NCBI RefSeq assembly: GCF_013315695.1
Contig: NZ_CP054353.1
DNA length: 64,000 bases
Reading direction: 5' to 3' (one strand)
DNA from: Escherichia coli
GTDB taxonomy: Bacteria; Pseudomonadota; Gammaproteobacteria; Enterobacterales; Enterobacteriaceae
Positions 37,655 to 60,068 of the stretch are shown piece by piece. Made by a program: the position numbers and the translations under genes. The stretch's first letter is position 1. Every line of letters begins with the position of its first letter. Under the pieces are notes generated by a model. That model was given only the letters and a program-made list of their open reading frames with translations. It ran no database searches and was not told where the DNA came from.

Positions 37655-37689
37655 CAGAGCCTGCCATTGGCAGGCTCTGGTGTTCTTTT
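37655..37689. terminator. bidirectional rho-independent terminator between convergent fimH and gntP
   Basis: Hairpin cagagcctgcc-attgg-caggctctg followed by T-run gtgttctttta. Confidence 0.6.
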
Positions 37690-39031
37690 ACGCTACCATG
37701 CTAATAATCAGCACAATAATAAGCCCAACCACGGAGTTGACCAGCTCCAGCAGACCCCAGGTTTTCAACGTGTCTTTTACTGACAGGTCAAAGTATCCTT
37801 TGAACAACCAGAAAGAAGCATCGTTAATGTGGGTGAGGGTGTTGGAACCCGCAGCCGTCGCCAGTACCAGCAGCGCCGGATTCACGCCAACCAGCTGACC
37901 AGTTGCTGGATCAAGGATTGCAGCACTGATAATCCCGGCGGCGGTCATCGCCGAAACGACACCCTGACCCGTCGCCAGACGAATTAGCACAGTGATCAGC
38001 CATGCCATGATGTAGGGCGAGATATTGCCGTGGGACATCAACATGCCGATGGTGTCGCCAATGCCGGTGTCGATGATGGTCTGCTTCAGCACGCCACCCG
38101 CACCGATGATCAGAATCACCATTGCAATACTCTTCACCGCGCTTTCAAAAGCGTTCATCACCCACTGCATGTCATGACCACGTGCGGTGCCAAAGAGTAC
38201 GAATGCAACCACCATCGCAATAAACATTGCAATCGGCGAGGAACCGATAAAGTTAACCACTTCCCAGGCAGGGGTATCTTTTACCAGCCAGATATTGGCG
38301 ATGGTGGTAGAGATCATAATGATCGCCGGGATCAGCGGCACCAGAATCGAAACGCCGAAAGAGGGCAGATTATTCATATCTACCGGTTGATCTGCTTTCA
38401 GGAATGATGGCGTTGGGCGCTCAAGATTGCCGAGGAACTTCGGCAGGATCAGACCTGCGCAGATTACACTTGGGATCGTCACCAGTACGCCATAGATATA
38501 AACCATCCCCATATCCGCGCCATAAGCATTCACCAGCGCCACCGGACCCGGCTGCGGTGGGAACAGTGAATGTGCGGTAGTGGCAGCTGCTACTGCCGGG
38601 ATCGCCAGTTTCAGGAACGGAATTTTAGCTTCGGCGGCAATAACAATAACCAGCGGCGCTAACATGATAAAGGCCACTTCATAGAACATCGCCAGACCAA
38701 AAATCAGGCCGATGATAATCACCGACAGCTGTACATAGCGCAGACCGAGACGCGCCAGCAGCGTATGCGCTATCTGGTGAGCCGCGCCGGAGTCGACCAT
38801 CAATTTACCGATGACCGCACCGAACACCACGATGATAGCCAGTTCCCCCAGCGTGTTGCCGAAGCCCGCTTTCATAGTGTGCAGCAGCGACATCAAATCC
38901 ATGCCCGCCAGCATCCCGACGGACAGCGCCGCCACCAACAAAGCCACCATTGAATTGATTTTGAACTTCAAATTCAGTACCAGCATCAGGCCAATGCCGA
39001 ATACCACCCAGAGAATGTTAAGCACATGCAT
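37688..39031 (-). CDS. gntP: GntP-family gluconate/fructuronate transporter
   Basis: 447-aa polytopic membrane protein [24 protein letters not shown]...; next to fim and uxu as in E. coli. Confidence 0.9.
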
Positions 39032-39370
39032 AACGTTTTACCTTACCTGGTTGAACCGTTGTTATTTTGGGCGATATGTTATGTAAATTGGTCAACCATT
39101 GTTGCGATGAATGTCACATCCTCTGATCAATAACCATCGATTACCCTTTGCTGCAATTTGCAGCAACAACCATGAGAGTGAAATTCTTGTGATGTGGTTA
39201 ACCAATTTCAGAATTCGGGTTGACATGTCTTACCAAAAGGTAGAACTTATACGCCATCTCATCCGATGCAACGCCACGGCTGCGGTCTGGTTGTTCATCC
39301 GGATACCTAAACAACTCCAGGGTTCCGCGTCTCTTTGCTGTGGAACCCACTATGTGAAAGAGGAAAAATC

Positions 39371-40555
39371 ATGGAACAGACCTGGCGCTGGTACGGCCCA
39401 AACGATCCGGTTTCTTTAGCTGATGTCCGTCAGGCGGGCGCAACTGGCGTGGTTACCGCGCTGCACCATATCCCGAACGGCGAAGTATGGTCCGTAGAAG
39501 AGATCCTCAAACGCAAGGCGATCGTTGAAGACGCAGGCCTGGTGTGGTCTGTCGTAGAAAGCGTACCAATTCACGAAGATATCAAAACCCACACTGGCAA
39601 CTATGAGCAGTGGATCGCTAACTATCAGCAGACTCTGCGCAACCTGGCGCAGTGCGGCATTCGCACCGTGTGCTACAACTTCATGCCGGTGCTCGACTGG
39701 ACCCGTACTGACCTCGAATACGTGCTGCCAGACGGCTCCAAAGCGCTGCGCTTCGACCAGATCGAATTCGCTGCATTCGAAATGCATATCCTGAAACGTC
39801 CAGGCGCGGAAGCGGATTACACCGAAGAAGAAATTGCTCAGGCTGCTGTTCGCTTCGCCACTATGAGCGACGAAGACAAAGCGCGTCTGACCCGTAACAT
39901 CATTGCTGGTCTTCCGGGCGCGGAAGAAGGCTACACCCTCGACCAGTTCCGTAAACACCTGGAGCTGTACAAAGATATCGACAAAGCGAAGCTGCGCGAA
40001 AACTTTGCCGTCTTCCTGAAAGCGATTATTCCAGTTGCTGAAGAAGTCGGCGTGCGTATGGCTGTTCACCCGGACGATCCGCCGCGCCCGATCCTCGGCC
40101 TGCCGCGCATTGTTTCCACCATTGAAGATATGCAGTGGATGGTTGATACCGTAAACAGCATGGCAAACGGTTTTACCATGTGCACCGGTTCCTACGGCGT
40201 GCGTGCTGACAACGATCTGGTTGATATGATCAAGCAGTTCGGTCCGCGTATTTACTTCACCCATCTGCGCTCCACCATGCGTGAAGATAACCCGAAAACC
40301 TTCCACGAAGCGGCGCACCTGAACGGTGACGTTGATATGTACGAAGTGGTGAAAGCGATTGTTGAAGAAGAACACCGTCGTAAAGCGGAAGGCAAAGAAG
40401 ACCTGATCCCGATGCGTCCGGACCACGGTCATCAGATGCTGGACGACCTGAAGAAGAAAACCAACCCAGGTTACTCCGCAATTGGTCGTCTGAAAGGCCT
40501 GGCCGAAGTTCGCGGTGTCGAACTGGCGATCCAGCGCGCTTTCTTTAGCCGTTAA
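39371..40555 (+). CDS. uxuA: mannonate dehydratase
   Basis: 394-aa product [40 protein letters not shown]... Confidence 0.93.
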
Positions 40556-40635
40556 TATCCACCGGCATGGCTGCGCGCCGTGCCGGTTCCTTCTTCCTTG
40601 CCGTCACTCTTTGAAGACGGATTCTGGAGTTTACG

Positions 40636-42096
40636 ATGACTACTATTGTTGACAGCAATCTGCCGGTTGCCCGCCCGTCATGGGATCATTCTCGTCTGGA
40701 ATCACGCATTGTGCATCTCGGTTGCGGGGCGTTTCACCGCGCGCACCAGGCGCTGTATACCCATCATCTGCTGGAAAGCACCGACAGCGACTGGGGCATC
40801 TGCGAAGTTAACCTGATGCCAGGCAACGACCGCGTGCTGATCGAAAACCTGAAAAAACAGCAACTGCTGTACACCGTAGCGGAAAAAGGCGCAGAGAGCA
40901 CCGAGCTGAAAATTATCGGTTCGATGAAAGAAGCGCTGCATCCGGAAATCGATGGCTGCGAAGGTATTCTCAACGCGATGGCGCGTCCGCAAACGGCGAT
41001 TGTCTCTCTAACGGTCACGGAAAAAGGCTACTGCGCTGATGCGGCAAGCGGTCAACTGGATCTCAATAACCCACTGATCAAGCACGATCTGGAAAACCCG
41101 ACTGCGCCGAAGTCCGCGATTGGTTACATCGTCGAAGCCTTGCGTCTGCGTCGTGAAAAAGGGTTGAAAGCGTTTACGGTGATGTCCTGCGATAACGTGC
41201 GTGAAAACGGTCATGTGGCGAAGGTCGCGGTACTGGGGCTGGCTCAGGCGCGTGACCCGCAGCTGGCGGCATGGATTGAAGAAAATGTCACCTTCCCGTG
41301 CACCATGGTTGACCGCATCGTTCCGGCGGCGACGCCAGAAACCTTACAGGAAATTGCTGACCAGCTGGGTGTTTACGACCCGTGCGCCATTGCCTGCGAA
41401 CCGTTCCGTCAGTGGGTGATTGAAGATAACTTCGTTAATGGTCGCCCGGACTGGGATAAAGTGGGCGCACAGTTCGTTGCAGACGTTGTGCCGTTCGAAA
41501 TGATGAAGCTGCGTATGCTGAACGGCAGCCACTCTTTTCTGGCGTACCTCGGTTACCTCGGCGGCTATGAAACCATTGCCGACACCATGACTAACCCGGC
41601 TTATCGCAAAGCGGCCTTTGCCCTGATGATGCAGGAACAAGCGCCAACGCTGTCGATGCCGGAAGGTACAGACCTGAACGCCTATGCGACGCTGCTGATC
41701 GAGCGTTTCAGCAACCCGTCTCTGCGTCACCGTACCTGGCAGATTGCGATGGACGGCAGCCAGAAGTTACCGCAGCGTCTGCTGGACCCGGTGCGTCTGC
41801 ACCTGCAAAACGGCGGCAGCTGGCGTCACCTGGCGCTGGGCGTGGCTGGCTGGATGCGTTACACCCAGGGCGTGGATGAGCAGGGTAATGCCATTGACGT
41901 GGTCGACCCGATGCTGGCGGAGTTCCAGAAGATCAACGCGCAGTATCAGGGCGCAGACCGCGTGAAAGCGCTGCTGGGCCTGAGCGGTATTTTTGCCGAT
42001 GATCTGCCGCAGAATGCCGACTTTGTTGGCGCGGTGACGGCGGCATATCAGCAGCTGTGCGAACGCGGTGCGCGCGAGTGTGTGGCTGCGCTGTAA
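40636..42096 (+). CDS. uxuB: D-mannonate oxidoreductase
   Basis: 486-aa product MTTIVDSNLPVARPSWDHSRLESRIVHLGCGAFHRAHQALYTHHLL... Confidence 0.93.
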   Translation: MTTIVDSNLPVARPSWDHSRLESRIVHLGCGAFHRAHQALYTHHLLESTDSDWGICEVNLMPGNDRVLIENLKKQQLLYTVAEKGAESTELKIIGSMKEALHPEIDGCEGILNAMARPQTAIVSLTVTEKGYCADAASGQLDLNNPLIKHDLENPTAPKSAIGYIVEALRLRREKGLKAFTVMSCDNVRENGHVAKVAVLGLAQARDPQLAAWIEENVTFPCTMVDRIVPAATPETLQEIADQLGVYDPCAIACEPFRQWVIEDNFVNGRPDWDKVGAQFVADVVPFEMMKLRMLNGSHSFLAYLGYLGGYETIADTMTNPAYRKAAFALMMQEQAPTLSMPEGTDLNAYATLLIERFSNPSLRHRTWQIAMDGSQKLPQRLLDPVRLHLQNGGSWRHLALGVAGWMRYTQGVDEQGNAIDVVDPMLAEFQKINAQYQGADRVKALLGLSGIFADDLPQNADFVGAVTAAYQQLCERGARECVAAL

Positions 42097-42118
42097 CTAA
42101 CTGATTACCCTACAGACT

Positions 42119-42167
42119 TACTGGTCAATCAAACTGATATTTGGTTGACCAGTTTTCGTTTTTTTGC
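42119..42167 (+). terminator. rho-independent terminator after uxuB
   Basis: Hairpin ctggtcaa...ttgaccag followed by ttttcgttttttt. Confidence 0.6.
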
Positions 42168-42242
42168 CCACCTGTACGTGCCAACTTCCAGTGCTAATGG
42201 TATAGTTTGAGATTAACGGGGGCCGTAAAATTGCCCGTTGTA

Positions 42243-42272
42243 GGCCGGATAAGGCGTTCACGCCGCATCCGG
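42243..42272. repeat. REP element
   Basis: ggccggataaggcgttcacgccgcatccggc, canonical REP-type palindrome. Confidence 0.6.
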
Positions 42273-42310
42273 CAAAAATTTGATTAACCGCACCTAACGG
42301 ACACAACACC

Positions 42311-43084
42311 ATGAAATCTGCCACCTCTGCGCAAAGACCTTACCAGGAAGTCGGGGCGATGATCCGCGATCTGATCATAAAGACGCCGTACAACCCTGGC
42401 GAACGGCTGCCGCCGGAGCGTGAAATTGCAGAAATGCTTGATGTCACGCGGACGGTGGTACGTGAAGCGCTGATCATGCTGGAGATCAAAGGGCTGGTGG
42501 AAGTGCGTCGGGGTGCCGGTATCTATGTTCTTGATAGCTCAGGCAGCCAGAACACAGACGGTCCGGATGCCAACGTCTGCAATGATGCCGGTCCTTTTGA
42601 GCTGTTACAGGCGCGTCAGTTACTGGAAAGTAACATCGCGGAATTTGCCGCCCTGCAGGCTACCCGCGAAGATATCGTCAAAATGCGTCAGGCATTGCAA
42701 CTGGAAGAGCGTGAACTGGCTTCCAGCGCGCCGGGCAGCAGCGAAAGTGGTGACATGCAATTCCATCTCGCCATTGCCGAAGCGACGCATAACAGCATGC
42801 TGGTGGAGCTGTTCCGTCAGTCCTGGCAGTGGCGGGAAAACAATCCGATGTGGATCCAGTTGCACAGCCATCTGGATGACAGCCTGTATCGCAAAGAGTG
42901 GTTGGGCGATCACAAACAGATCCTCGCCGCGTTAATCAAAAAAGATGCCCGAGCGGCGAAGCTGGCAATGTGGCAGCATCTGGAAAACGTTAAGCAACGT
43001 CTGCTGGAATTCTCGAACGTTGACGATATTTATTTTGACGGCTATCTGTTTGATTCATGGCCGCTGGATAAAGTCGACGCCTGA
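42311..43084 (+). CDS. uxuR: GntR-family repressor of the uxu regulon
   Basis: 257-aa product with N-terminal wHTH and FadR-like C-terminal domain. Confidence 0.92.
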   Translation: MKSATSAQRPYQEVGAMIRDLIIKTPYNPGERLPPEREIAEMLDVTRTVVREALIMLEIKGLVEVRRGAGIYVLDSSGSQNTDGPDANVCNDAGPFELLQARQLLESNIAEFAALQATREDIVKMRQALQLEERELASSAPGSSESGDMQFHLAIAEATHNSMLVELFRQSWQWRENNPMWIQLHSHLDDSLYRKEWLGDHKQILAALIKKDARAAKLAMWQHLENVKQRLLEFSNVDDIYFDGYLFDSWPLDKVDA

Positions 43085-43243
43085 CTTATTATAATAAGCG
43101 CAAGGGTAAACGTTCCTTGCGCTTTCTTAAATTAAGAAGTCGCAATGAGTATTACTTTGTAAATTGCAGGGTATTGTTTAGCTATCTGTATAACCTGAAC
43201 GTGAGTACTCATTCTTCTCAGTGGCTATTTACCAATATAATTC

Positions 43244-44011
43244 GGTAATGACTCCAACTTATTGATAGTGTTTTATGTTCAGATAATGCCCGATGACTTT
43301 GTCATGCAGCTCCACCGATTTTGAGAACGACAGCGACTTCCGTCCCAGCCGTGCCAGGTGCTGCCTCAGATTCAGGTTATGCCGCTCAATTCGCTGCGTA
43401 TATCGCTTGCTGATTACGTGCAGCTTTCCCTTCAGGCGGGATTCATACAGCGGCCAGCCATCCGTCATCCATATCACCACGTCAAAGGGTGACAGCAGGC
43501 TCATAAGACGCCCCAGCGTCGCCATAGTGCGTTCACCGAATACGTGCGCAACAACCGTCTTCCGGAGCCTGTCATACGCGTAAAACAGCCAGCGCTGGCG
43601 CGATTTAGCCCCGACATAGCCCCACTGTTCGTCCATTTCCGCGCAGACGATGACGTCACTGCCCGGCTGTATGCGCGAGGTTACCGACTGCGGCCTGAGT
43701 TTTTTAAGTGACGTAAAATCGTGTTGAGGCCAACGCCCATAATGCGGGCTGTTGCCCGGCATCCAACGCCATTCATGGCCATATCAATGATTTTCTGGTG
43801 CGTACCGGGTTGAGAAGCGGTGTAAGTGAACTGCAGTTGCCATGTTTTACGGCAGTGAGAGCAGAGATAGCGCTGATGTCCGGCGGTGCTTTTGCCGTTA
43901 CGCACCACTCCGTCAGTAGCTGAACAGGAGGGACAGCTGATAGAAACAGAAGCCACTGGAGCACCTCAAAAACACCATCATACGCTAAATCAGTAAGTTG
44001 GCAGCATCACC
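43244..44011 (-). mobile_element. IS1 (768 bp), simple insertion with 9-bp target duplication
   Basis: Ends ggtaatgactccaacttattgatag ... cagtaagttggcagcatcacc; insA (43681..43956) and insB (43259..43762) ORFs; ATATAATTC at 43235-43243 and 44012-44020. Inserted 4 codons before the stop of the split yjiC-like gene. Confidence 0.93.
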
Positions 44012-44418
44012 ATATAATTCCATTCACCATTTTTTAATTCAAACAGCTCTGGAAGAGATGACGGTTGCAGAGTCATACGTTTGAGTGGTGCATTTTCATC
44101 ACCCGGGATAACTTTATATCCCATTTTTGCATGGATCTCCGCTGTACCGGGATAGGCTTCTATACCAATTATTGGGTCATTACCCAACTCAATATTAGCA
44201 TTAAGTAATGCGGCAAGGGCGAATCCGGAAGAGTTTGCCACCCCTGAGACAGTCATTATCTGATCAATATAGATATCAATCCTTGGCTGCTCATTGGTCC
44301 ATCTTTTTGCCTGAGAAGTTGGAAGAGTTGAAATATATCCTATCGTGGTTCCGGCGTAACCTGGAACATTGCAGCCAGGGCCTAATGTTATTTCATGAAC
44401 TGTATAGTCCTCAACAGG
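44012..44418 (-). pseudogene. C-terminal half of an IS1-split gene (yjiC-like by position)
   Basis: Minus-strand frame is open from the IS1 junction at 44418 (PVEDYTVHEITLGPGC...) through ...ELKNGEWNY into the IS1 at 44011; bypassing the IS1 the frame continues IGK-stop at 43225-43227. Confidence 0.6.
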
Positions 44419-45186
44419 GGTAATGACTCCAACTTACTGATAGTGTTTTATGTTCAGATAATGCCCGATGACCTTGTCATGCAGCTCCACCGATTTTGAG
44501 AACGACAGTGACTTCCGTCCCAGCCTTGCCAGATGTTGTCTCAGATTCAGATTATGTCGCTCAATGCGCTGAGTGTAACGCTTGCTGATAACGTGCAGCT
44601 TTCCCTTCAGGCGTGATTCATACAGCGGCCAGCCATCCGTCATCCATACCACGACCTCAAAGGCCGACAGCAGGCTCAGAAGACGCTCCAGTGTGGCCAG
44701 AGTGCGTTCACCGAAGACGTGCGCCACAACCGTCCTCCGTATCCTGTCATACGCGTAAAACAGCCAGCGCTGACGTGATTTAGCACCGACGTAGCCCCAC
44801 TGTTCGTCCATTTCAGCGCAGACAATCACATCACTGCCCGGTTGTATGCGCGAGGTTACCGACTGCGGCCTGAGTTTTTTAAGTGACGTAAAACCGTGTT
44901 GAGGCCAACGCCCATAATGCGTGCACTGGCGCGACATCCGACGCCATTCATGGCCATATCAATGATTTTCTGGTGCTTACCGGGCTGAGAGGCGGTATAA
45001 GTGAACTGTAGTTGCCATGTTTTACGGCAATGAGAGCAGAGATAGCGCTGATGTCCGGCAGTGCTTTTGCCGTTACGCACCACGCCTTCAGTAGCGGAGC
45101 AGGAAGGACATCTGATGGAAATGGAAGCCACGCAAGCACCTTAAAATCACCATCATACACTAAATCAGTAAGTTGGCAGCATTACC
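44419..45186 (-). mobile_element. IS1 variant copy (768 bp)
   Basis: Divergent insA/insB (Ins[17 protein letters not shown]...); left flank ctcaacagg is the reverse complement of CCTGTTGAG, which flanks the fourth IS1 copy at 58846-58854. Confidence 0.9.
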
Positions 45187-45456
45187 AAATTTTAATTACA
45201 CTTAAGGTGTATATTTTCTATGCAAGCCATCAATTAAAGAGGTGTAATGTGCTGATGACTATTTGTAATCGTTATACATTCTGACCTGGAGTCAGAAGGT
45301 ATTTCTCTGTCGGTGTGTTCACAGGCAGTGTGGTTGATTACATGAAATTCAGTACATTTGCAGTCTCGTTGCCCTTCTCGCCTGCCTTTCGTCATTACCG
45401 ACGGTATTGAATTTCGTTTTGCCCGTTGGGGTTCTCCGGACAAGGAGTTGTTTGTT

Positions 45457-46689
45457 ATGCCACGTTTTTTTGCCCGCCATGCCGCCACGCTGTTTTTCCC
45501 GATGGCGTTGATTTTGTATGATTTTGCCGCGTACCTGTCGACGGACCTGATTCAGCCGGGGATCATTAATGTGGTCCGTGATTTTAATGCCGATGTCAGT
45601 CTGGCCCCGGCAGCCGTCAGTCTCTATCTCGCGGGCGGTATGGCGTTACAGTGGCTGCTGGGGCCGCTTTCCGACAGGATTGGCCGCAGGCCGGTGCTGA
45701 TTACCGGGGCGCTAATATTTACCCTTGCCTGCGCTGCGACAATGTTCACAACGTCTATGACACAGTTTCTTATCGCGCGTGCAATTCAGGGCACCAGTAT
45801 CTGTTTTATTGCCACCGTTGGTTATGTCACGGTGCAGGAGGCGTTCGGCCAGACAAAAGGGATCAGGTTGATGGCGATTATCACCTCCATCGTACTGATT
45901 GCGCCGATTATCGGCCCGCTTTCCGGCGCAGCTCTGATGCACTTTGTACACTGGAAAGTCCTTTTTGCCATCATTGCGATTATGGGTTTTATCTCATTTG
46001 TTGGCTTACTGCTGGCGATGCCAGAGACGGTGAAGCGCGGCGCGGTTTCATTTAGCGCCAAAAGCGTCTTGCGCGATTTTCGTAATGTCTTTTGCAATCG
46101 GCTGTTCCTCTTTGGTGCAGCAACCATCTCTTTAAGCTATATCCCAATGATGAGCTGGGTGGCTGTCTCGCCGGTGATCCTGATTGACGCAGGCGGCTTA
46201 ACGACCTCGCAGTTCGCCTGGACACAGGTTCCGGTATTCGGCGCGGTGATTGTCGCGAATGCCATCGTGGCGCGTTTCGTTAAAGATCCGACCGAACCGC
46301 GCTTTATCTGGCGTGCCGTACCCATTCAACTGGTTGGCCTCGCGCTGTTGATTATCGGCAATCTGCTGTCACCGCACGTCTGGCTGTGGTCGGTGCTGGG
46401 CACCAGTCTGTATGCTTTCGGGATTGGTTTGATTATCCCGACCTTATTCCGCTTTACGCTGTTTTCCAATAAATTACCGAAAGGGACCGTCTCCGCATCG
46501 CTGAATATGGTGATCCTGATGGTGATGTCTGTCTCGGTCGAAATCGGCCGCTGGCTGTGGTTTAACGGCGGTCGCTTGCCGTTTCATCTGTTAGCCGTCG
46601 TGGCGGGCCTTATCGTCGTTTTCACCCTGGCGGGATTGCTTAATCGCGTGCGCCAACATCAGGCTGCCGAGCTGGCGGAGGAGCGGTGA
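45457..46689 (+). CDS. mdtM: MFS multidrug efflux transporter
   Basis: 410-aa product [35 protein letters not shown]...; 12-TM MFS; yjiN-mdtM synteny. Confidence 0.85.
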
Positions 46690-46729
46690 TTTTTGCGCGA
46701 TCCTGCCGTCAGGCTCTATTCTTAACATT

Positions 46730-48010
46730 ATGAATAAACTCATTGAACTCAGACGCGCCAAAATGTTGGCGCTCTCTTTACTGCTTATCGCCGCTGCTAC
46801 CTTTGTCGTTACGCTGTTTTTGCCACCCAATTTTTGGGTGAGCGGTGTGAAGGCGATTGCTGAAGCGGCGATGGTCGGCGCGCTGGCAGACTGGTTTGCG
46901 GTGGTGGCGCTGTTTCGCCGCGTGCCGATTCCGATCATTTCTCGTCATACGGCGATTATCCCGCGTAATAAAGACCGGATTGGCGAAAATCTCGGTCAGT
47001 TCGTGCAGGAAAAATTTCTCGATACCCAATCGCTGGTGGCATTGATTCGACGTCACGAACCGGTGTTGTTGATTGGCAACTGGTTTAGTCAGCCAGAAAA
47101 CGCCCGCCGCGTTGGTCAGCATCTGTTGCAGATCATGAGTGGTTTTCTTGAACTGACCGATGATGCGCGTATTCAGCGCCTGCTTAAGCGCGCAGTCCAT
47201 CGGGCGATTGATAAGATCGATCTTTCCGGCACCAGTGCGTTGATGCTGGAGAGTATGACCAAAAACGATCGTCATCAGGTGCTGCTGGATACGCTGATCG
47301 CGCAGTTGATTGCTCTTCTCCAGCGCGATAAATCGCGCAAGTTTATTGCCCAGCAAATTGTTCGCTGGCTGGAGAGCGAGCATCCGCTGAAAGCCAAAAT
47401 TTTGCCTACTGAATGGCTGGGCGAACATAGCGCGGAGTTGGTTTCTGACGCGGTGAATTCTTTGCTTGATGATATCAGCCGCGATCGTGTACATCAGATC
47501 CGCCATGCGTTTGATCGCGCCACTTTTGCCCTGATCGACAAGTTGAAAAACGATCCGGAAATGGCAGCGCGAGCCGATGCCGTAAAAAGTTATCTGAAAG
47601 AAGATGAAGCTTTTAACCGCTATCTCAGTGAATTGTGGGGGGATTTACGGGAATGGCTGAAAGCGGATATCGACAGTGAAGATTCTCGTGTGAAAGAACG
47701 TATCGCGCGGGCGGGTCAATGGTTTGGCGAAACGTTAATTGCCGATGATGCCTTGCGGGCGTCGTTAAATGGTCACCTGGAACAAGCCGCGCACCGCGTC
47801 GCGCCTGAGTTTTCCGCATTCCTGACGCGCCACATCAGCGATACGGTAAAAAGCTGGGATGCGCGGGATATGTCGCGGCAAATAGAGTTAAATATCGGCA
47901 AAGATCTGCAGTTTATCCGTGTCAACGGTACGCTGGTCGGCGGTTGTATTGGGCTAATTTTGTATTTGCTGTCGCAGCTCCCGGCCTTATTCCCCCTCAG
48001 CAATTTTTAG
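46730..48010 (+). CDS. yjiN: DUF445 inner membrane protein
   Basis: 426-aa [33 protein letters not shown]... Confidence 0.8.
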
Positions 48011-48125
48011 AAATCCATGAAAAACTAAGTGGCTAACCGCGAGAGAGATCAAATAAACCACACTAAAAGAATGGTAATAATGTGGCCTCTTTTCATTATC
48101 TCCCGTGGTACGGGGAAGGAAAATC

Positions 48126-51233
<3,108 letters not shown>

Positions 51234-51300
51234 CAGGCTGGCATGTTTCACCTTTTTGTTATTAACTTGTTAACAACAAAAATGACAAACAAGGTTAAAC

Positions 51301-52479
51301 ATGCCTTCGCCCTCGCATCCCGTAGAACGCTTTTCTTTCAGCACCGCGCTTTTCGGGATGCTGGTTCTGACCTTAGGTATGGGTTTAGGCCGCTTCCTTT
51401 ATACGCCTATGTTGCCCGTCATGATGGCGGAAGGATCGTTTTCATTTAGCCAGCTCTCGTGGATTGCCAGCGGCAACTATGCGGGGTATCTGGCTGGCAG
51501 TCTGCTATTTTCGTTTGGCGCATTTCACCAGCCATCGCGCCTGCGCCCATTTCTGTTGGCTTCTGCCCTAGCGAGCGGGTTGTTGATCCTCGCAATGGCA
51601 TGGTTGCTGCCATTTATTCTGGTGTTATTGATTCGCGTCCTGGCGGGTGTCGCCAGCGCCGGTATGCTGATTTTTGGTTCGACGCTGATTATGCAGCACA
51701 CGCGCCATCCTTTTGTGCTGGCAGCTTTGTTTTCTGGCGTTGGCATTGGCATCGCACTGGGCAATGAATATGTTCTGGCAGGCCTGCATTTTGACCTCTC
51801 CTCGCAAACGTTATGGCAAGGCGCCGGGGCGCTTTCTGGCATGATGCTGATTGCACTTACGCTTTTAATGCCCTCGAAAAAACACGCCATCACACCAATG
51901 CCATTGGCAAAAACGGAGCAACAGATAATGAGCTGGTGGTTACTGGCTATTCTGTACGGCCTGGCGGGATTTGGTTATATCATCGTCGCGACTTACCTGC
52001 CGCTCATGGCGAAAGATGCAGGCTCACCATTGTTAACCGCCCATCTCTGGACGTTAGTCGGCTTATCAATTGTGCCTGGTTGCTTTGGCTGGCTATGGGC
52101 AGCAAAACGTTGGGGGGCTTTGCCCTGCCTGACGGCGAATTTGCTGGTGCAGGCTATCTGTGTGCTGCTTACTCTCGCCAGCGACTCGCCTCTCTTGCTT
52201 ATCATCAGCAGTCTTGGTTTTGGCGGTACCTTTATGGGCACGACATCTCTGGTGATGACTATCGCCCGCCAACTGAGCGTACCGGGAAATCTCAATCTTT
52301 TAGGCTTTGTGACGCTCATTTACGGCATTGGACAAATCCTCGGCCCGGCGCTGACCAGTATGCTCGGCAATGGAACATCGGCGCTTGCCGGCGCCACTCT
52401 CTGCGGCGCGGCGGCGTTGTTTATTGCTGCGCTTATCAGCACAGTACAATTATTTAAGCTGCAAGTGGTCACTTCATGA
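51301..52479 (+). CDS. yjiJ: MFS-type inner membrane protein (DUF1228)
   Basis: 392-aa polytopic protein. Confidence 0.8.
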
Positions 52480-52491
52480 GGAGTGTTTCCC

Positions 52492-53046
52492 TTACCACTC
52501 AAGAAATTCGACCGCAACCGTTGATGTCAGCCAGACCCCGTTTTCCGCTTGCCAGAAAGGGAGGCCTCGTTTCGCCATTTCCTGTGCTTTGACGGTTAAA
52601 ATAACCGGCGATCCGTGTCTTGCTCCCACTTTGCGTGCCGTTGCTTCATCAGCAGAGAGATGTACGTAGTGACGCTCACCTGCAATCAGCCCCTGTTTTT
52701 TTATCTCGTCAAGGAAACGGCTTGCCGTACCGTGGTAGAGAAACTGTGGCGGTGTTTTTTCGGCAAAGGAAATAGCGACCTGCGAAGTCGAATGCCCCTG
52801 AACCGCGCGGATGCACCTACCATCACTGGAATAACTAAAACGCTTTTTATCGCTGGTGGCAACCACGGTATCCAGCAATGCACGGGTTAACCGCTTGCCC
52901 GCTTTTTGGGCACAAAGTATGAGCTTATCGATATCCGCCCATCCTTCACGGTCCAGTACGATACCAATCGCCTCCGGTTTGTGTCGGAGGACAAAACTTA
53001 AAAACTTGCTCGTATCCGCCAGCTCTTTTTCGTTGTACTTTGCCAT
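52492..53046 (-). CDS. kptA: RNA 2'-phosphotransferase (Tpt1 family)
   Basis: 184-aa product [43 protein letters not shown]... Confidence 0.9.
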
Positions 53047-53295
53047 CGCGTTTTCGTCCCTGGATTATCTGTTTTTTATTTACTATGTCATTGTCACTGG
53101 GTTTATGAATTTTCTGCAACTCAATCCTGCGTAGAACCTTTTCCACACAGCGTAATTTTACCGCTATGCAAAAAACGCATAGTCAGAAACATACTTGCAT
53201 TTTCCCCATACCCACATGGCTGATAAGGTTTTTCAGCTCCAGGAATTTTCCTGGCTCAAGCAACACACAAACACAAAAAAACAATGGGGATTGTT

Positions 53296-53979
53296 ATGAC
53301 ACAACAAGGGGATGCTGTAGCCGGGGAGCTGGCGACAGAAAAAGTGGGCATTAAAGGGTATCTGGCTTTTTTTCTCACCATAATCTTTTTTTCCGGTGTT
53401 TTTTCCGGGACAGACAGTTGGTGGCGCGTTTTTGATTTTTCCGTTCTGAACGGATCGTTTGGGCAACTGCCTGGTGCGAACGGAGCCACCACCTCGTTTC
53501 GCGGCGCGGGTGGCGCGGGGGCTAAAGATGGCTTTCTCTTTGCGCTGGAGCTGGCACCGTCAGTCATTCTCTCTCTGGGGATTATTTCAATTACCGATGG
53601 TCTTGGCGGATTACGCGCCGCGCAGCAGTTAATGACGCCAGTGCTAAAACCGTTGTTGGGCATTCCAGGGATCTGCTCGCTGGCGCTGATCGCTAACCTG
53701 CAAAACACCGATGCCGCCGCAGGTATGACCAAAGAGCTGGCGCAGGAAGGTGAAATTACCGAACGCGATAAAGTGATTTTCGCCGCATATCAAACCAGCG
53801 GTAGCGCCATTATCACCAACTACTTCTCTTCCGGCGTCGCGGTGTTTGCCTTTCTGGGCACGTCCGTAATCGTACCTTTAGCAGTCATCCTGGTGTTTAA
53901 ATTTGTCGGAGCCAACATTTTGCGCGTCTGGCTTAACTTCGAAGAACGTCGCAACCCAACGCAAGGAGCGCAAGCATGA
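53296..53979 (+). CDS. yjiH: nucleoside-recognition-domain inner membrane protein
   Basis: Start taken at MTQQGDAVAGELA within ORF 53284..53979. Confidence 0.8.
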   Translation: MTQQGDAVAGELATEKVGIKGYLAFFLTIIFFSGVFSGTDSWWRVFDFSVLNGSFGQLPGANGATTSFRGAGGAGAKDGFLFALELAPSVILSLGIISITDGLGGLRAAQQLMTPVLKPLLGIPGICSLALIANLQNTDAAAGMTKELAQEGEITERDKVIFAAYQTSGSAIITNYFSSGVAVFAFLGTSVIVPLAVILVFKFVGANILRVWLNFEERRNPTQGAQA

Positions 53980-54437
53980 CAACTCAGGTCCGCAAAAACG
54001 TCATGGATATGTTTATCGATGGTGCGCGCCGTGGCTTTACTATCGCCACGACCAACCTGCTGCCAAACGTGGTGATGGCGTTTGTCATCATTCAGGCGCT
54101 GAAAATTACCGGCCTGCTCGACTGGGTGGGGCATATCTGTGAACCCGTAATGGCGCTGTGGGGATTACCCGGTGAAGCGGCAACCGTCCTTTTAGCCGCA
54201 TTAATGAGTATGGGTGGCGCAGTCGGTGTTGCCGCCAGTCTGGCAACCGCTGGCGCATTAACCGGTCACGATGTCACCGTTTTACTGCCCGCGATGTATT
54301 TAATGGGCAACCCGGTGCAAAATGTCGGTCGCTGCCTGGGGACAGCCGAAGTGAATGCCAAATATTACCCGCATATCATTACGGTCTGCGTGATTAACGC
54401 ATTGCTGTCGATCTGGGTTATGCAGCTTATTGTTTAA
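53976..54437 (+). CDS. yjiG: SpmB-like inner membrane protein
   Basis: 153-aa ORF overlapping yjiH stop (ATGA). Confidence 0.8.
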   Translation: MTTQVRKNVMDMFIDGARRGFTIATTNLLPNVVMAFVIIQALKITGLLDWVGHICEPVMALWGLPGEAATVLLAALMSMGGAVGVAASLATAGALTGHDVTVLLPAMYLMGNPVQNVGRCLGTAEVNAKYYPHIITVCVINALLSIWVMQLIV

Positions 54438-54449
54438 CAAGGAGTTACC

Positions 54450-55622
54450 ATGATTGATTATACCGCAGCCGGTTTTACCCTGCTGCAGGGAGCGCATTTG
54501 TATGCGCCGGAAGATCGGGGAATTTGCGATGTCCTCGTCGCTAACGGCAAAATTATCGCCGTTGCCAGTAATATCCCTTCTGACATTGTACCGGACTGCA
54601 CGGTTGTCGATCTCAGCGGGCAGATCCTCTGCCCAGGTTTTATTGATCAACACGTCCATTTGATTGGCGGTGGCGGCGAAGCAGGTCCCACGACGCGCAC
54701 GCCGGAAGTGGCGTTAAGTCGTCTGACGGAAGCAGGCGTCACGTCAGTGGTTGGTCTGCTGGGCACCGACTCTATCTCTCGCCACCCGGAATCCCTGCTC
54801 GCCAAGACCCGTGCGCTCAATGAAGAAGGCATCAGCGCCTGGATGCTGACCGGCGCTTATCATGTCCCTTCCCGCACTATTACGGGTTCCGTGGAAAAAG
54901 ACGTGGCGATTATCGATCGCGTGATTGGCGTGAAATGCGCCATCTCTGATCACCGTTCTGCCGCACCGGACGTTTATCACCTGGCTAATATGGCGGCGGA
55001 ATCCCGCGTTGGCGGTTTGCTCGGCGGTAAACCTGGCGTCACCGTGTTCCACATGGGCGACAGCAAAAAGGCGTTACAGCCTGTCTATGACCTGCTGGAA
55101 AACTGCGATGTGCCGATTAGCAAGTTGCTGCCGACCCACGTTAACCGCAACGTTCCGTTGTTTGAGCAGGCGCTGGAGTTCGCGCGCAAAGGCGGCACCA
55201 TCGATATCACCAGCAGCATTGACGAACCAGTCGCCCCTGCCGAAGGTATTGCCCGCGCCGTTCAGGCGGGTATTCCGCTGGCACGCGTCACCCTCAGCTC
55301 CGACGGCAACGGTAGCCAGCCGTTCTTCGATGACGAAGGGAATTTAACCCATATCGGTGTTGCCGGTTTTGAAACGTTGCTGGAAACCGTGCAGGTGCTG
55401 GTCAAAGATTATGATTTCAGTATCAGCGATGCCCTGCGCCCGCTCACCAGTAGCGTAGCCGGTTTCCTTAACCTGAGCGGGAAAGGCGAAATTCTGCCAG
55501 GCAATGACGCAGACTTACTGGTCATGACGCCAGAATTACGTATTGAGCAGGTATACGCTCGCGGCAAGCTGATGGTCAAAGACGGCAAAGCCTGCGTGAA
55601 AGGAACGTTTGAAACGGCATAA
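54450..55622 (+). CDS. iadA: isoaspartyl dipeptidase
   Basis: 390-aa amidohydrolase with HVHLIGGGGE metal-binding motif. Confidence 0.9.
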   Translation: MIDYTAAGFTLLQGAHLYAPEDRGICDVLVANGKIIAVASNIPSDIVPDCTVVDLSGQILCPGFIDQHVHLIGGGGEAGPTTRTPEVALSRLTEAGVTSVVGLLGTDSISRHPESLLAKTRALNEEGISAWMLTGAYHVPSRTITGSVEKDVAIIDRVIGVKCAISDHRSAAPDVYHLANMAAESRVGGLLGGKPGVTVFHMGDSKKALQPVYDLLENCDVPISKLLPTHVNRNVPLFEQALEFARKGGTIDITSSIDEPVAPAEGIARAVQAGIPLARVTLSSDGNGSQPFFDDEGNLTHIGVAGFETLLETVQVLVKDYDFSISDALRPLTSSVAGFLNLSGKGEILPGNDADLLVMTPELRIEQVYARGKLMVKDGKACVKGTFETA

Positions 55623-55686
55623 ACGGTTGTCAGCCGCCCGAATGGACGTAGAATGCCCGCAAGGGCGGCTGACAGAGTAAAACGTA

Positions 55687-56598
55687 ATGGATGACTGTGG
55701 TGCGGTTTTGCATAATATTGAAACTAAATGGCTTTATGATTTTCTGACCCTGGAAAAATGCCGCAATTTTTCCCAGGCAGCAGTCAGTCGCAACGTCTCG
55801 CAACCGGCATTCAGCCGCCGCATCCGTGCGCTGGAACAGGCGATTGGCGTTGAATTGTTTAACCGCCAGGTGACGCCGCTGCAACTCTCGGAACAAGGTA
55901 AAATATTCCATTCGCAGATCCGCCATCTGTTGCAACAGTTAGAGAGCAACCTTGCAGAACTCCGTGGTGGCAGCGATTACGCGCAACGCAAAATTAAAAT
56001 AGCCGCTGCACACTCTCTTTCCCTCGGGCTGTTACCGTCCATTATCAGCCAGATGCCGCCGCTCTTTACCTGGGCAATTGAAGCTATTGATGTCGATGAA
56101 GCGGTCGATAAACTGCGTGAAGGGCAAAGTGACTGTATTTTTTCCTTTCACGACGAAGATTTGCTGGAAGCGCCGTTTGACCACATTCGCTTATTTGAAT
56201 CTCAATTGTTCCCCGTTTGCGCCAGTGACGAACACGGAGAAGCACTTTTTAACCTCGCGCAGCCACACTTTCCGTTACTGAATTACAGCCGCAACTCCTA
56301 CATGGGGCGATTGATTAATCGCACCCTGACGCGCCACAGTGAGTTAAGTTTCAGCACCTTTTTTGTCTCTTCGATGAGCGAGCTTTTAAAGCAGGTTGCC
56401 CTCGACGGCTGTGGGATTGCCTGGCTACCGGAATACGCCATCCAACAAGAAATTCGCAGCGGGCAGCTCGTTGTACTGAATCGGGACGAACTGGTGATCC
56501 CGATTCAGGCCTATGCATACCGGATGAATACCCGCATGAATCCAGTTGCCGAACGCTTCTGGCGTGAACTGCGCGAGCTGGAGATTGTGCTTAGCTGA
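55687..56598 (+). CDS. hypT: LysR-type transcriptional regulator (hypochlorite-responsive HypT/YjiE)
   Basis: 303-aa LysR-type product with N-terminal wHTH ([29 protein letters not shown]). Confidence 0.85.
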
Positions 56599-56983
56599 CA
56601 TTCTCCAGCGTCGCACTGCGCCAACCGCCATTATCCCAGACCAGATCAAACGTTAGCGATTCATCGTCGTGATACAGCATTATCTCAAGGCTGATCGCCA
56701 GAGTGTGGCAGTACGCTTCTTTCAAATTAACCTGCAACGCCGCAATCCGTGGCTCATGAAATAACAGTGCAGAACGCAGCTGACGGCAATACCAGCTCTG
56801 GAGATGTTTGTCGCTCGGGTTATGCACTTGCCACTCGGGCATGCCTGAAACAAGTAATGACGGTAATGCCGAATGAGGAGAATTAAAAAGAGTGAGGAGA
56901 TCGCTGCATACTGATTTACGCAGCGGTGACGTTTTATTGCCTGAAATTTCAGGTAAAACAGCCTGAAGTGATTGGCGCATCAT
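56591..56983 (-). CDS. iraD: anti-adaptor protein IraD
   Basis: 130-aa product [25 protein letters not shown]...; convergent with and overlapping hypT 3' end. Confidence 0.8.
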
Positions 56984-57440
56984 TTTGCGCACTCCTGACG
57001 TTTAGCAACATATGCGGCTTGCCCTGAACACCGGGCACCACTGTATTGATGCTCATTTTCCATAGCCATTCCCTTTTGTTCATTACATCCATGTCAGTCT
57101 GAGACAGGCCTGAATCCTGTCAGCAAAGTATAAAACCTTACTTGCCTATGAATATCTACTGACTTTTCAGGAAAAAAGTCATGATTTGATAAAAATCATC
57201 AAACTCAAAAAAAAACCGCTAGTATATTCTGAATATTCCGAATAGTTACGTAGATGAAAATACTTGTCACCACCGCTACTTAATTCCGGTGGGAAATTAT
57301 TTATTTCCGCATAATCAGCCATGTATTATTTAAAACAATTAGTTTGTAAATAATATAAATTGATAACATATCAAATACATCAAAAATACCATTCACAGGC
57401 ATTATTAATATAGACATCAATATAGCAACATCAAATTCCA

Positions 57441-58208
57441 GGTAATGACTCCAACTTATTGATAGTGTTTTATGTTCAGATAATGCCCGATGACTTTGTC
57501 ATGCAGCTCCACCGATTTTGAGAACGACAGCGACTTCCGTCCCAGCCGTGCCAGGTGCTGCCTCAGATTCAGGTTATGCCGCTCAATTCGCTGCGTATAT
57601 CGCTTGCTGATTACGTGCAGCTTTCCCTTCAGGCGGGATTCATACAGCGGCCAGCCATCCGTCATCCATATCACCACGTCAAAGGGTGACAGCAGGCTCA
57701 TAAGACGCCCCAGCGTCGCCATAGTGCGTTCACCGAATACGTGCGCAACAACCGTCTTCCGGAGCCTGTCATACGCGTAAAACAGCCAGCGCTGGCGCGA
57801 TTTAGCCCCGACATAGCCCCACTGTTCGTCCATTTCCGCGCAGACGATGACGTCACTGCCCGGCTGTATGCGCGAGGTTACCGACTGCGGCCTGAGTTTT
57901 TTAAGTGACGTAAAATCGTGTTGAGGCCAACGCCCATAATGCGGGCTGTTGCCCGGCATCCAACGCCATTCATGGCCATATCAATGATTTTCTGGTGCGT
58001 ACCGGGTTGAGAAGCGGTGTAAGTGAACTGCAGTTGCCATGTTTTACGGCAGTGAGAGCAGAGATAGCGCTGATGTCCGGCGGTGCTTTTGCCGTTACGC
58101 ACCACCCCGTCAGTAGCTGAACAGGAGGGACAGCTGATAGAAACAGAAGCCACTGGAGCACCTCAAAAACACCATCATACACTAAATCAGTAAGTTGGCA
58201 GCATCACC
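57441..58208 (-). mobile_element. IS1 (768 bp), simple insertion with 9-bp target duplication
   Basis: InsA/InsB proteins identical to the copy at 43244-44011; CAAATTCCA on both flanks. Start set from the ORF track; my base count of the printed lines gave 57439, a 2-bp ambiguity. Confidence 0.9.
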
Positions 58209-58431
58209 CAAATTCCAATTAGTAATAAGATATGCTTTTAAATTGCATGCAAATAATTTTAAATGAGCGTTTTTTGATACTTTAGAGTGTTTCCCACCAT
58301 TTAATATCACTGTGTAGAGTTGATATCACTACAACAGAAACATGCATGTCATTTGTTTACTTCTCTTTTTACTACAGAAAAATTTATCTATTTTTCTAAG
58401 CATCAGTGAAATACTCATAAAGGTAACTATT

Positions 58432-58854
58432 ATGTCTATGCCATTAAGCAATGCCCTTCAGAGTCAAATTATTACAGATAATCACTTCCTTCATCATCCA
58501 AAAGTCGACAGTGAGTTAACACGTAAACATGAACGTGGACGCATGGATACGGAAAATATCTATCTTCCGCCTCTTGCTCGTGGCAATAACCATAATTACG
58601 ATGGAAAAAGCGTTGTCGAAATTAGAAAACTTGATATTAGTAAAGAGTCCTGGCCATTTAATTATGTGACAGAAACATGCAGAGAATTCAATGGTATTAC
58701 AACAACAGGACGTATGCTCTATCGAAACTTGAAAATCACCTCAGCTTTAGACGAAATATATGGTGGTATATGTAAAAAGGCGCATGCTGCCACAGAGTTA
58801 GCAGAAGGATTACGGCTAAATTTATTTATGAAAAGCCCTTTCGATCCTGTTGAG
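58432..58854 (+). pseudogene. N-terminal half of the same IS1-split gene (yjiC-like by position)
   Basis: AT-rich frame MSMPLSNALQSQIITDNHFLHHPKVDSELTRK...LFMKSPFDPVE runs into the IS1 at 58855; joins the 44418 fragment across the CCTGTTGAG duplication to give ~276 aa. Confidence 0.6.
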
Positions 58855-59622
58855 GGTAATGCTGCCAACTTACTGATTTAGTGTATGATGGTGATTTTAA
58901 GGTGCTTGCGTGGCTTCCATTTCCATCAGATGTCCTTCCTGCTCCGCTACTGAAGGCGTGGTGCGTAACGGCAAAAGCACTGCCGGACATCAGCGCTATC
59001 TCTGCTCTCATTGCCGTAAAACATGGCAACTACAGTTCACTTATACCGCCTCTCAGCCCGGTAAGCACCAGAAAATCATTGATATGGCCATGAATGGCGT
59101 CGGATGTCGCGCCAGTGCACGCATTATGGGCGTTGGCCTCAACACGGTTTTACGTCACTTAAAAAACTCAGGCCGCAGTCGGTAACCTCGCGCATACAAC
59201 CGGGCAGTGATGTGATTGTCTGCGCTGAAATGGACGAACAGTGGGGCTACGTCGGTGCTAAATCACGTCAGCGCTGGCTGTTTTACGCGTATGACAGGAT
59301 ACGGAGGACGGTTGTGGCGCACGTCTTCGGTGAACGCACTCTGGCCACACTGGAGCGTCTTCTGAGCCTGCTGTCGGCCTTTGAGGTCGTGGTATGGATG
59401 ACGGATGGCTGGCCGCTGTATGAATCACGCCTGAAGGGAAAGCTGCACGTTATCAGCAAGCGTTACACTCAGCGCATTGAGCGACATAATCTGAATCTGA
59501 GACAACATCTGGCAAGGCTGGGACGGAAGTCACTGTCGTTCTCAAAATCGGTGGAGCTGCATGACAAGGTCATCGGGCATTATCTGAACATAAAACACTA
59601 TCAGTAAGTTGGAGTCATTACC
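58855..59622 (+). mobile_element. IS1 variant copy (768 bp), inverted relative to the copy at 44419-45186
   Basis: Left end ggtaatgctgccaacttactgat; insA 58910..59185 and insB 59104..59607 encode the same variant proteins as the 44419-45186 copy; left flank CCTGTTGAG. Confidence 0.9.
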
Positions 59623-59778: not shown

Positions 59779-60068
59779 TTGTATATACAATTAGGGATGG
59801 CAATTATGCCAATGGAGTTTGAATGGGATGAAAACAAGGCCAAAAGTAATCGGGTGAAACATGGCATCCGCTTTGAAGATGCGGTGTTATTGTTTGATGA
59901 TCCACAACATTTGTCACAGCAAGAACGCATAGAAAACGGTGAGTATCGCTGGCAGACATTACGGCATCGTGGTTATTCTGGTTGCGCATACCATCCGTTT
60001 CGAAAGCGGAAATGAAATTATTCGAATCATCAGTGCACGAAAAGCAGATCGTAAAGAGAGGAATCGCT
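59779..60068 (+). pseudogene. BrnT-like (DUF497) toxin, frameshifted
   Basis: N-terminal MPMEFEWDENKAKSNRVKHGIRFEDAVLLFDDPQHLSQQERIENGEYRWQT then an aberrant tail; the expected C-terminus (...RFESGNEIIRIISARKADRKERNRYEHG) is encoded in another frame at ~59990-60070. Confidence 0.6.

Follow-up and report, generated by a model that had tools for sequence, protein, structure and literature searches.

Two pieces of yjiC among four IS1 copies

We analyzed a stretch of 64,000 nucleotides (nt) of an Escherichia coli chromosome (contig NZ_CP054353.1, assembly GCF_013315695.1; here, the window) in which the gene yjiC lies in two pieces among four 768-bp copies of the insertion sequence (IS) IS1, designated a, b, c, and d. 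Copy d is inverted relative to the other three. A preliminary description of this DNA had read the two pieces as halves of a single gene. What it left unsaid is that the 14 kb between them result from an inversion that has identical, inverted IS1 copies at its two boundaries. The features of the locus are as follows.

42311 to 43084, plus strand: uxuR, the left-hand neighbor, convergent with yjiC, given for context
43225 to 43243, minus strand: the final codons of yjiC (I, G, K, and the stop), displaced from the rest of the gene, with one copy of the IS1-a target site duplication (TSD)
43244 to 44011, minus strand: IS1-a, IS1A-type, a simple insertion in the last codons of yjiC with the direct 9-bp TSD ATATAATTC
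44012 to 44418, minus strand: yjiC 3' fragment, codons 139 to 273 (PVEDYTVHEITLG...EWNY), in its ancestral orientation, convergent with uxuR
44419 to 45186, minus strand: IS1-b, IS1F-type, the new copy
45187 to 58854, no strand assigned: the inverted block (13,668 bp), with IS1F copies b and d, identical and inverted, at its two ends
57441 to 58208, minus strand: IS1-c, IS1A-type, a simple insertion with the TSD CAAATTCCA at 57432 to 57440 and 58209 to 58217
58432 to 58854, plus strand: yjiC 5' fragment, codons 1 to 141 (MSMPLS...KSPFDPVE), inverted
58855 to 59622, plus strand: IS1-d, IS1F-type, 100% identical to IS1-b and inverted relative to it
59806 to 60371, plus strand: brnT (frameshifted) and brnA (intact), a toxin-antitoxin pair by IS1-d and the ancestral right-hand neighbors of the IS1F element resident there

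The 5' fragment ends ...KSPFDPVE at 58854 on the plus strand, and its frame runs 8 codons into IS1-d (GNAANLLI, then a stop). The 3' fragment starts with PVEDYTVHEITLG at 44418 on the minus strand and continues down to 44012. We joined the two in silico by appending the reverse complement of 44012 to 44418 to 58432 to 58854 (plus strand), removing one copy of the duplicated CCTGTTGAG, bypassing IS1-a with one copy of its duplication (the ATATAATTC at 43235 to 43243, plus strand), and continuing into 43234 to 43225. The joined frame is open for 276 codons, from MSMPLS to ...EWNYIGK and the stop, and contains no other stop and no other frameshift; an alternative upstream ATG at 58342 would give a protein of 306 amino acids. 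The claims that the fragments join in frame across the duplication, and that the frame of about 276 amino acids ends IGK-stop beyond the IS1 at 43244 to 44011, were thereby verified, as was each coordinate and sequence on which they had been based. Because the reconstruction carries no further stop or frameshift, the split is recent, and yjiC in this strain is a recently made pseudogene.

The reconstructed protein is, judged by its sequence, YjiC (DUF2686). The Pfam model PF10887 (DUF2686) aligned with it end to end, residues 1 to 276 on profile positions 1 to 285 of 285, at 514.4 bits (cutoff, 25; 7.6e-155). At the DNA level, the 831-nt reconstruction matched an annotated, contiguous yjiC over its full length with 99.8% identity, so that the BLAST comparison proposed in the preliminary description upheld the identity given there. 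The reconstruction found matches in 4,896/5,426 complete E. coli genomes and was covered at 80% or more in one place in 4,882. When the halves were compared by BLAST with the intact locus of strain Z1323PEC0010 (L001), they met at L001 20415 to 20424, where their overlap is exactly the duplicated target. The K-12 yjiC ("YjfZ/YjiC family") occupies the same locus and likewise encodes 276 amino acids, with about 95% protein identity to the common alleles; here, in contrast, the gene is in two inverted pieces and its last three codons are also displaced by IS1A. The window contains no contiguous translatable yjiC, as 14.4 kb separate the halves, which are on opposite strands.

The four IS1 copies fall into two pairs. 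Copies a and c, assigned to IS1A from annotation, differ from each other at 2 positions, b and d differ at none, and a/c differ from b/d at 69 to 70 positions. Copies b and d belong to the IS1F isoform, with 5 mismatches/768 relative to the K-12 IS1F (insA7/insB7, next to fecI; L011 4473 to 5240), with which they share the terminal repeats. In all four copies we found the terminal inverted repeats GGTAATGACTCCAACTTA... and ...TAAGTTGGCAGCATYACC, open reading frames of 91 and 167 amino acids, and the A6C frameshift motif TTAAAAAAC. The insA and insB frames of b and d are open, and RefSeq annotates a programmed-frameshift transposase; the K-12 insB7, in contrast, is interrupted by an internal stop and is a pseudogene.

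The preliminary description had counted two IS1 hits in the gene and a third upstream. The count was right, but the mid-gene hit is better read as a single event, the outcome of which was an inversion and two copies of IS1F. The other two are simple insertions that arose as separate events. Taken alone, IS1-a replaces the last three residues, IGK, with MVMLPTY; RefSeq still annotates an intact yjiC of 280 amino acids where IS1-a is the sole insertion (e.g., EC6622), and the insertion is old, being common to 243 complete genomes, including ATCC 8739 and ML35. IS1-c lies in the ytiC/yjiC intergenic region (29% GC), upstream of both ytiC (by 24 bp) and the yjiC start (by 224 bp). No complete E. 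coli genome carried IS1-c at its site, nor did the two close relatives AF3 and MSB1_4I described below, and IS1-c is private to this strain. It also precedes the start codon of iraD by about 460 bp and is within the AT-rich control region between the divergent yjiC and ytiC-ytiD-idlP-iraD. From this placement, IS1-c could alter expression of iraD, which encodes an RpoS stabilizer.

The inverted block and its ancestral state

Comparison with the intact locus of Z1323PEC0010 established the orientation of each part. Window positions 45186 to 57440 and 58209 to 58855 are collinear with L001 7533 to 20424, whereas 37655 to 43243 and 44009 to 44418 match L001 in the opposite orientation. Therefore, the block at 45187 to 58854 is inverted with respect to uxuR and all of the sequence left of that gene, and comparison with intact loci placed its breakpoints exactly at the TSD. 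The block contains mdtM, yjiN, yjiM, yjiL, ytiA, yjiK, yjiJ, kptA, yjiH, yjiG, iadA, hypT, iraD, idlP, ytiD, and ytiC, 16 complete genes that are all intact, followed by IS1-c and the 5' half of yjiC. Once the inversion is undone, yjiC takes up its orthologous position, in which it is convergent with uxuR and has the ytiC-ytiD-idlP-iraD unit on its other side. Its flanks are then collinear with annotated loci, which confirms the placement between uxuR and iraD that had been proposed.

The ends of b and d record both an old and a new arrangement. The target sequence is present as an inverted 9-bp pair, CTCAACAGG at 44410 to 44418, left of IS1-b, and its reverse complement CCTGTTGAG at 58846 to 58854, left of IS1-d, and neither copy has a direct TSD. 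In IS1-b, the right inverted repeat (IRR) end forms the new junction with the 3' half of yjiC and the left inverted repeat (IRL) end forms the ancestral junction with the region upstream of mdtM. In IS1-d, the IRR end forms the ancestral junction on the brnT side and the IRL end forms the new junction with the 5' half of yjiC.

The uninverted order was found in EC6622 (L003), which reads yjiA, brnA, brnT (frameshifted), a single IS1F, mdtM ... iraD, yjiC, IS1A, uxuR. Its resident IS1F (L003 16002 to 16769) differs from b and d by 1 nt, and its yjiC is contiguous. This IS1F is flanked by ...CTCGCTGTCG toward brnT and by AAATTTTAATTA... toward mdtM. The window splits these flanks between its two copies, with the brnT-side CTCGCTGTCG on IS1-d and the mdtM-side AAATTTTAATTA on IS1-b. 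A 1,971-bp query spanning the brnT/mdtM junction with its single IS1F was covered at 80% or more in 1,006 complete genomes.

The inversion junctions, in contrast to this single-IS state, were found in exactly two complete genomes, AF3 (NZ_OZ547117.1; United Kingdom, blood) and MSB1_4I (NZ_LR898874.1; Australia, rectal swab), each of which has both junctions at 99.2 to 100% identity. RefSeq annotates both halves of the gene in these genomes as partial DUF2686 pseudogenes, the 3' half as missing its N terminus. Over 17.5 kb, 4 substitutions distinguish the window from AF3, and IS1-c is a further difference. Because IS1-c is missing from both genomes and from this site in every complete genome, the window represents a third, very close relative of AF3 and MSB1_4I. 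When IS1F-type places were told apart from IS1A with a short query at E ≤ 1e-35, AF3 and MSB1_4I, which have at least 40 IS1 pieces each, had just 3 IS1F-type places, two of them flanking the inversion.

Routes to the inversion

The locus has the textbook structure of intramolecular replicative transposition in trans, and the resident IS1F probably produced it in one step, by such a transposition into yjiC. The comparisons show the structure itself, the ancestral state with a single IS, and the derived state shared by the relatives; to the single step we give a probability of about 0.7. An IS1F-type element already present 13.7 kb away, between brnT and mdtM, would have attacked the opposite strand ("trans") in yjiC on the same chromosome and transposed replicatively. 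This single event would have duplicated the IS, left the copies inverted, inverted the interval between donor and target, and turned the 9-bp target CCTGTTGAG into an inverted pair, of which one member is outside one IS and the second member is inside the other IS. The 3' half of yjiC would have stayed by uxuR, and the 5' half, together with the promoter region, would have been carried to the far end of the block. The order of events was (i) arrival of IS1F between brnT and mdtM (1,006 genomes), (ii) entry of IS1A copy a at the very end of the yjiC coding sequence (243 genomes), (iii) in three genomes, the inversion together with the duplication of IS1F, and (iv) in this strain only, insertion of IS1A copy c upstream of ytiC and yjiC.

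The structural marks of transposition in trans were all found, namely, identical inverted copies, an inverted TSD pair, and one old and one new junction on each IS, as was a single-IS relative with an intact target (EC6622 and about 1,006 genomes). We also searched the 5,426 complete genomes with a synthetic query, yjiC 5'-IS1F-yjiC 3' without the inversion. There was no exact match; the best matches reached 97% in 4 pieces and had IS1 only elsewhere in the neighborhood, outside the yjiC coding sequence. The 217 records with at least 80% coverage are uninformative, since a nearby IS1A was merged with the yjiC halves, and the ranking alone is usable. Of the k-mers TCGATCCTGTTGAGGGTAATGCTGCC and GGAGTCATTACCCCTGTTGAGGACTAT, the second would occur solely in an uninverted insertion. 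One step is favored because no uninverted IS1F insertion at CCTGTTGAG was found among these genomes and because all three carriers share one orientation. A third reason is that the neighboring IS1F is the probable donor, because the new copy is of the rare IS1F type and identical to the copy 13.7 kb away. Among the matches listed, the seven other insertions within or adjacent to yjiC are without exception IS1A-type, and those in uxuR and between idlP and iraD are of a third type.

To our knowledge, when the donor and the target share a molecule, replicative transposition leads to an inversion or a deletion and never to a simple insertion. Turlan and Chandler reportedly described IS1-mediated intramolecular rearrangements, adjacent deletions and inversions, in plasmid assays in 1995 (cited in PMC12428005 and PMC4471558). 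Those rearrangements involve the same element family and the same donor-retained class of mechanism, whereas the present one is a natural chromosomal case fixed in a small lineage. Within the chromosome, IS1 transposed only replicatively, with the donor retained, in 210/210 tested events (PMC12428005). The same signature was described for trans transposition of IS26 and Tn4401, where a single-IS relative argues for one step (He et al. 2015, PMC4471558). That case shares with ours the identical inverted IS copies, the inverted target pair, the gene in two inverted halves, and the single-IS relative. It differs in that the element there is IS26 (8 bp) on clinical plasmids, whereas here it is IS1 (IS1F, 9-bp duplication) on the chromosome; in both cases the single step is something that we and those authors infer.

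Alternatively, the inversion might have arisen in two steps, with a simple IS1F insertion (9-bp duplication) in yjiC, opposite to the resident copy, followed by RecA recombination that flipped the 13.7 kb. Inversions in bacteria commonly arise by recombination between inverted IS copies, and this route predicts the exact structure observed, with inverted TSD halves and one old and one new flank per IS. Moreover, EC190486 and 98193 carry simple IS1 insertions 4 to 13 bp from the site in the same orientation. On the other hand, two events are needed where one suffices, the uninverted intermediate is missing from the 5,426 complete genomes, and the insertion has one orientation in all three of its carriers. 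The inserted copy is also of the rare IS1F type and identical to the nearest resident, although IS1A outnumbers it more than 10-fold in these genomes and accounts for each of the seven other insertions within or adjacent to yjiC. We regard two steps as a serious alternative that is nonetheless rather unlikely.

Repeats as long as 768 bp can be misjoined in short-read assemblies, and the block could in principle have been misoriented between them, leaving a yjiC with a mere simple IS1 insertion. The inversion is not an assembly artifact, because AF3 and MSB1_4I, whose chromosomes were finished independently and come from different countries, have the same junctions; in addition, with the inversion undone, the block would still have an IS1F at each end, in contrast to EC6622-type relatives, which have one. 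We rejected this explanation as very improbable. Least credible of all is a composite transposon that brought the IS1F-flanked block in from elsewhere, which we rejected on the collinearity with intact loci: two inverted IS1 copies around 13.7 kb have the formal layout, but the block consists of the native yjiC neighbors in their native order, followed at its end by the half that yjiC is missing, and its outer flanks have no direct 9-bp duplication.

Several points weigh against one-step transposition. No sequence feature separates it from the two-step route, as the end product is identical, and the simple IS1 insertions a few base pairs away in other strains make the first of two steps plausible. 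The missing intermediate rests on three genomes of this sublineage. The K-12 IS1F is said to add little to transposition (PMC12428005), a point qualified by the stop codon in insB of that copy, which b and d do not have. Finally, the resident IS1F at the brnT/mdtM position is without a TSD of its own (TTAAAATTT versus CGACAGCGA, at window junctions 45186/45187 and 59622/59623), and its own history is not simple. In other strains, this position is occupied by yjiP/rpn, yjiR, and yjiS with restriction genes or by penicillin acylase; an older IS1-associated deletion or replacement probably removed the yjiP-yjiS/restriction-gene region at the IS1F site.

IS1 insertions around yjiC and meaning of the locus

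The preliminary description had suggested that yjiC is dispensable or a hotspot and had proposed a survey of IS insertions across genomes. Among the matches listed, there are at least 10 independent IS1 sites within 1.76 kb around yjiC, given here in L001 coordinates, in which yjiC occupies 20001 to 20831.

19326 to 19333: 2406_w1_hybrid, between idlP and iraD, third type (95.8% to IS1-b)
19778 to 19786: this window (IS1-c), ytiC/yjiC intergenic, IS1A
19877 to 19886: BE311, with the same match pattern in F41, K99S, and EC24.26, ytiC/yjiC intergenic, IS1A
20402 to 20410: 98193 (L013 3063 to 3830), in yjiC, IS1A
20404 to 20412: EC190486 (L012 3065 to 3832), in yjiC, IS1A
20416 to 20424: this window (IS1-b/d), in yjiC, IS1F
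20704 to 20713: YZ22PE67, with the same match pattern in YZ22PE68 and YZ22PE106, in yjiC, IS1A
20817 to 20825: 243 genomes (IS1-a), last yjiC codons, IS1A
20829 to 20837: PEC41, at the stop codon, IS1A
21079 to 21087: DETEC-E480, with the same match pattern in DETEC-P622, in uxuR, third type (95.8% to IS1-b)

The IS1A insertions of EC190486 and 98193 have the TSDs GCCCTTTCG and GAGCCCTTT and, with the b/d insertion, make three independent IS1 insertions in the same orientation within a 23-bp stretch of yjiC (AAGCCCTTTCGATCCTGTTGAG). These two nearest insertions came from a query aimed at the b/d site, and the best-ranked matches of each search were considered; the clustering in yjiC is therefore suggestive and is not a measured excess. 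Some yjiC alleles are frameshifted without any IS (L005 3981 to 4731 and L006 2714 to 3464), their two pieces meeting near L001 20686 to 20704, which fits an easily lost gene. The suggestion of a dispensable gene or a hotspot thus has real but incompletely sampled support.

IS1 prefers AT-rich targets, and the GC content is 40% in yjiC and 29% in the ytiC/yjiC spacer, compared with 48% in the window. The yjiC/iraD spacer is among the AT-rich "promoter islands" of K-12, which have been linked to H-NS binding (PMC3661553). Given at least eight further independent IS1 insertions around yjiC in other genomes, a local IS1 hotspot is a plausible idea. In a more specific form, which we hold only tentatively, AAGCCCTTTCGATCCTGTTGAG or, more broadly, the 1.1-kb AT-rich yjiC/"promoter island" region may be an orientation-biased IS1 hotspot, owing to DNA structure or a bound protein of the H-NS/IHF type, or loss of yjiC may be repeatedly selected.

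The YjiC family is confined to Escherichia and Shigella. A search of 1.84 billion representative proteins with YjiC returned only Escherichia-type fragments, the PDB contained no credible relative by sequence or by profile (best E, 0.08), and no model for YjiC exists in NCBIfam, with DUF2686 alone in Pfam. An AlphaFold2 model of YjiC built from 7 sequences was unusable (mean predicted local distance difference test score [pLDDT], 33.5), and an impression that the C-terminal half looked GNAT-like was unsupported and was dropped. A transposon mutant in yjiC of an atypical enteropathogenic E. coli strain was biofilm deficient (PMC4100040), and yjiC was induced by azidothymidine (AZT), independently of LexA and alongside iraD (PMC11228462).

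Elsewhere in the window, fimB (28752 to 29354), which encodes the recombinase of the type 1 fimbria switch, has an internal stop (...DTRLI-stop-DYLGH...), likewise annotated in MSB1_4I. Positions from about 1 to 26000 form an apparent genomic island, as judged by collinearity with the MSB1_4I annotation (L010, NZ_LR898874.1 4487000 to 4514000) without base-level alignment. This putative island contains Ag43, a CbtA/YeeU toxin-antitoxin system, an antirestriction protein, and a large SNF2/DNA methyltransferase/DEAD-box helicase trio that resembles a defense system. With regard to the element itself, the IS1F isoform, called nearly inactive in K-12, moved at least once in this lineage.

The event is an ordinary, already known kind of IS-mediated inversion, and its pieces are already annotated in public genomes. 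For annotation, its value is that the two "partial DUF2686" pseudogenes, although separated by 14 kb, belong to a single gene. As a clean natural IS1 inversion of which both the single-IS ancestor and the product are visible, it could be used in teaching or to benchmark rearrangement callers. A small lineage of E. coli carries mdtM, hypT, iraD, and 13 other intact genes in an inverted 13.7-kb block. Knowledge of IS1 and of YjiC function is unchanged, and the possible local IS1 hotspot is the sole mildly interesting lead; if the hotspot is real, loss of yjiC would recur in unrelated E. coli lineages.

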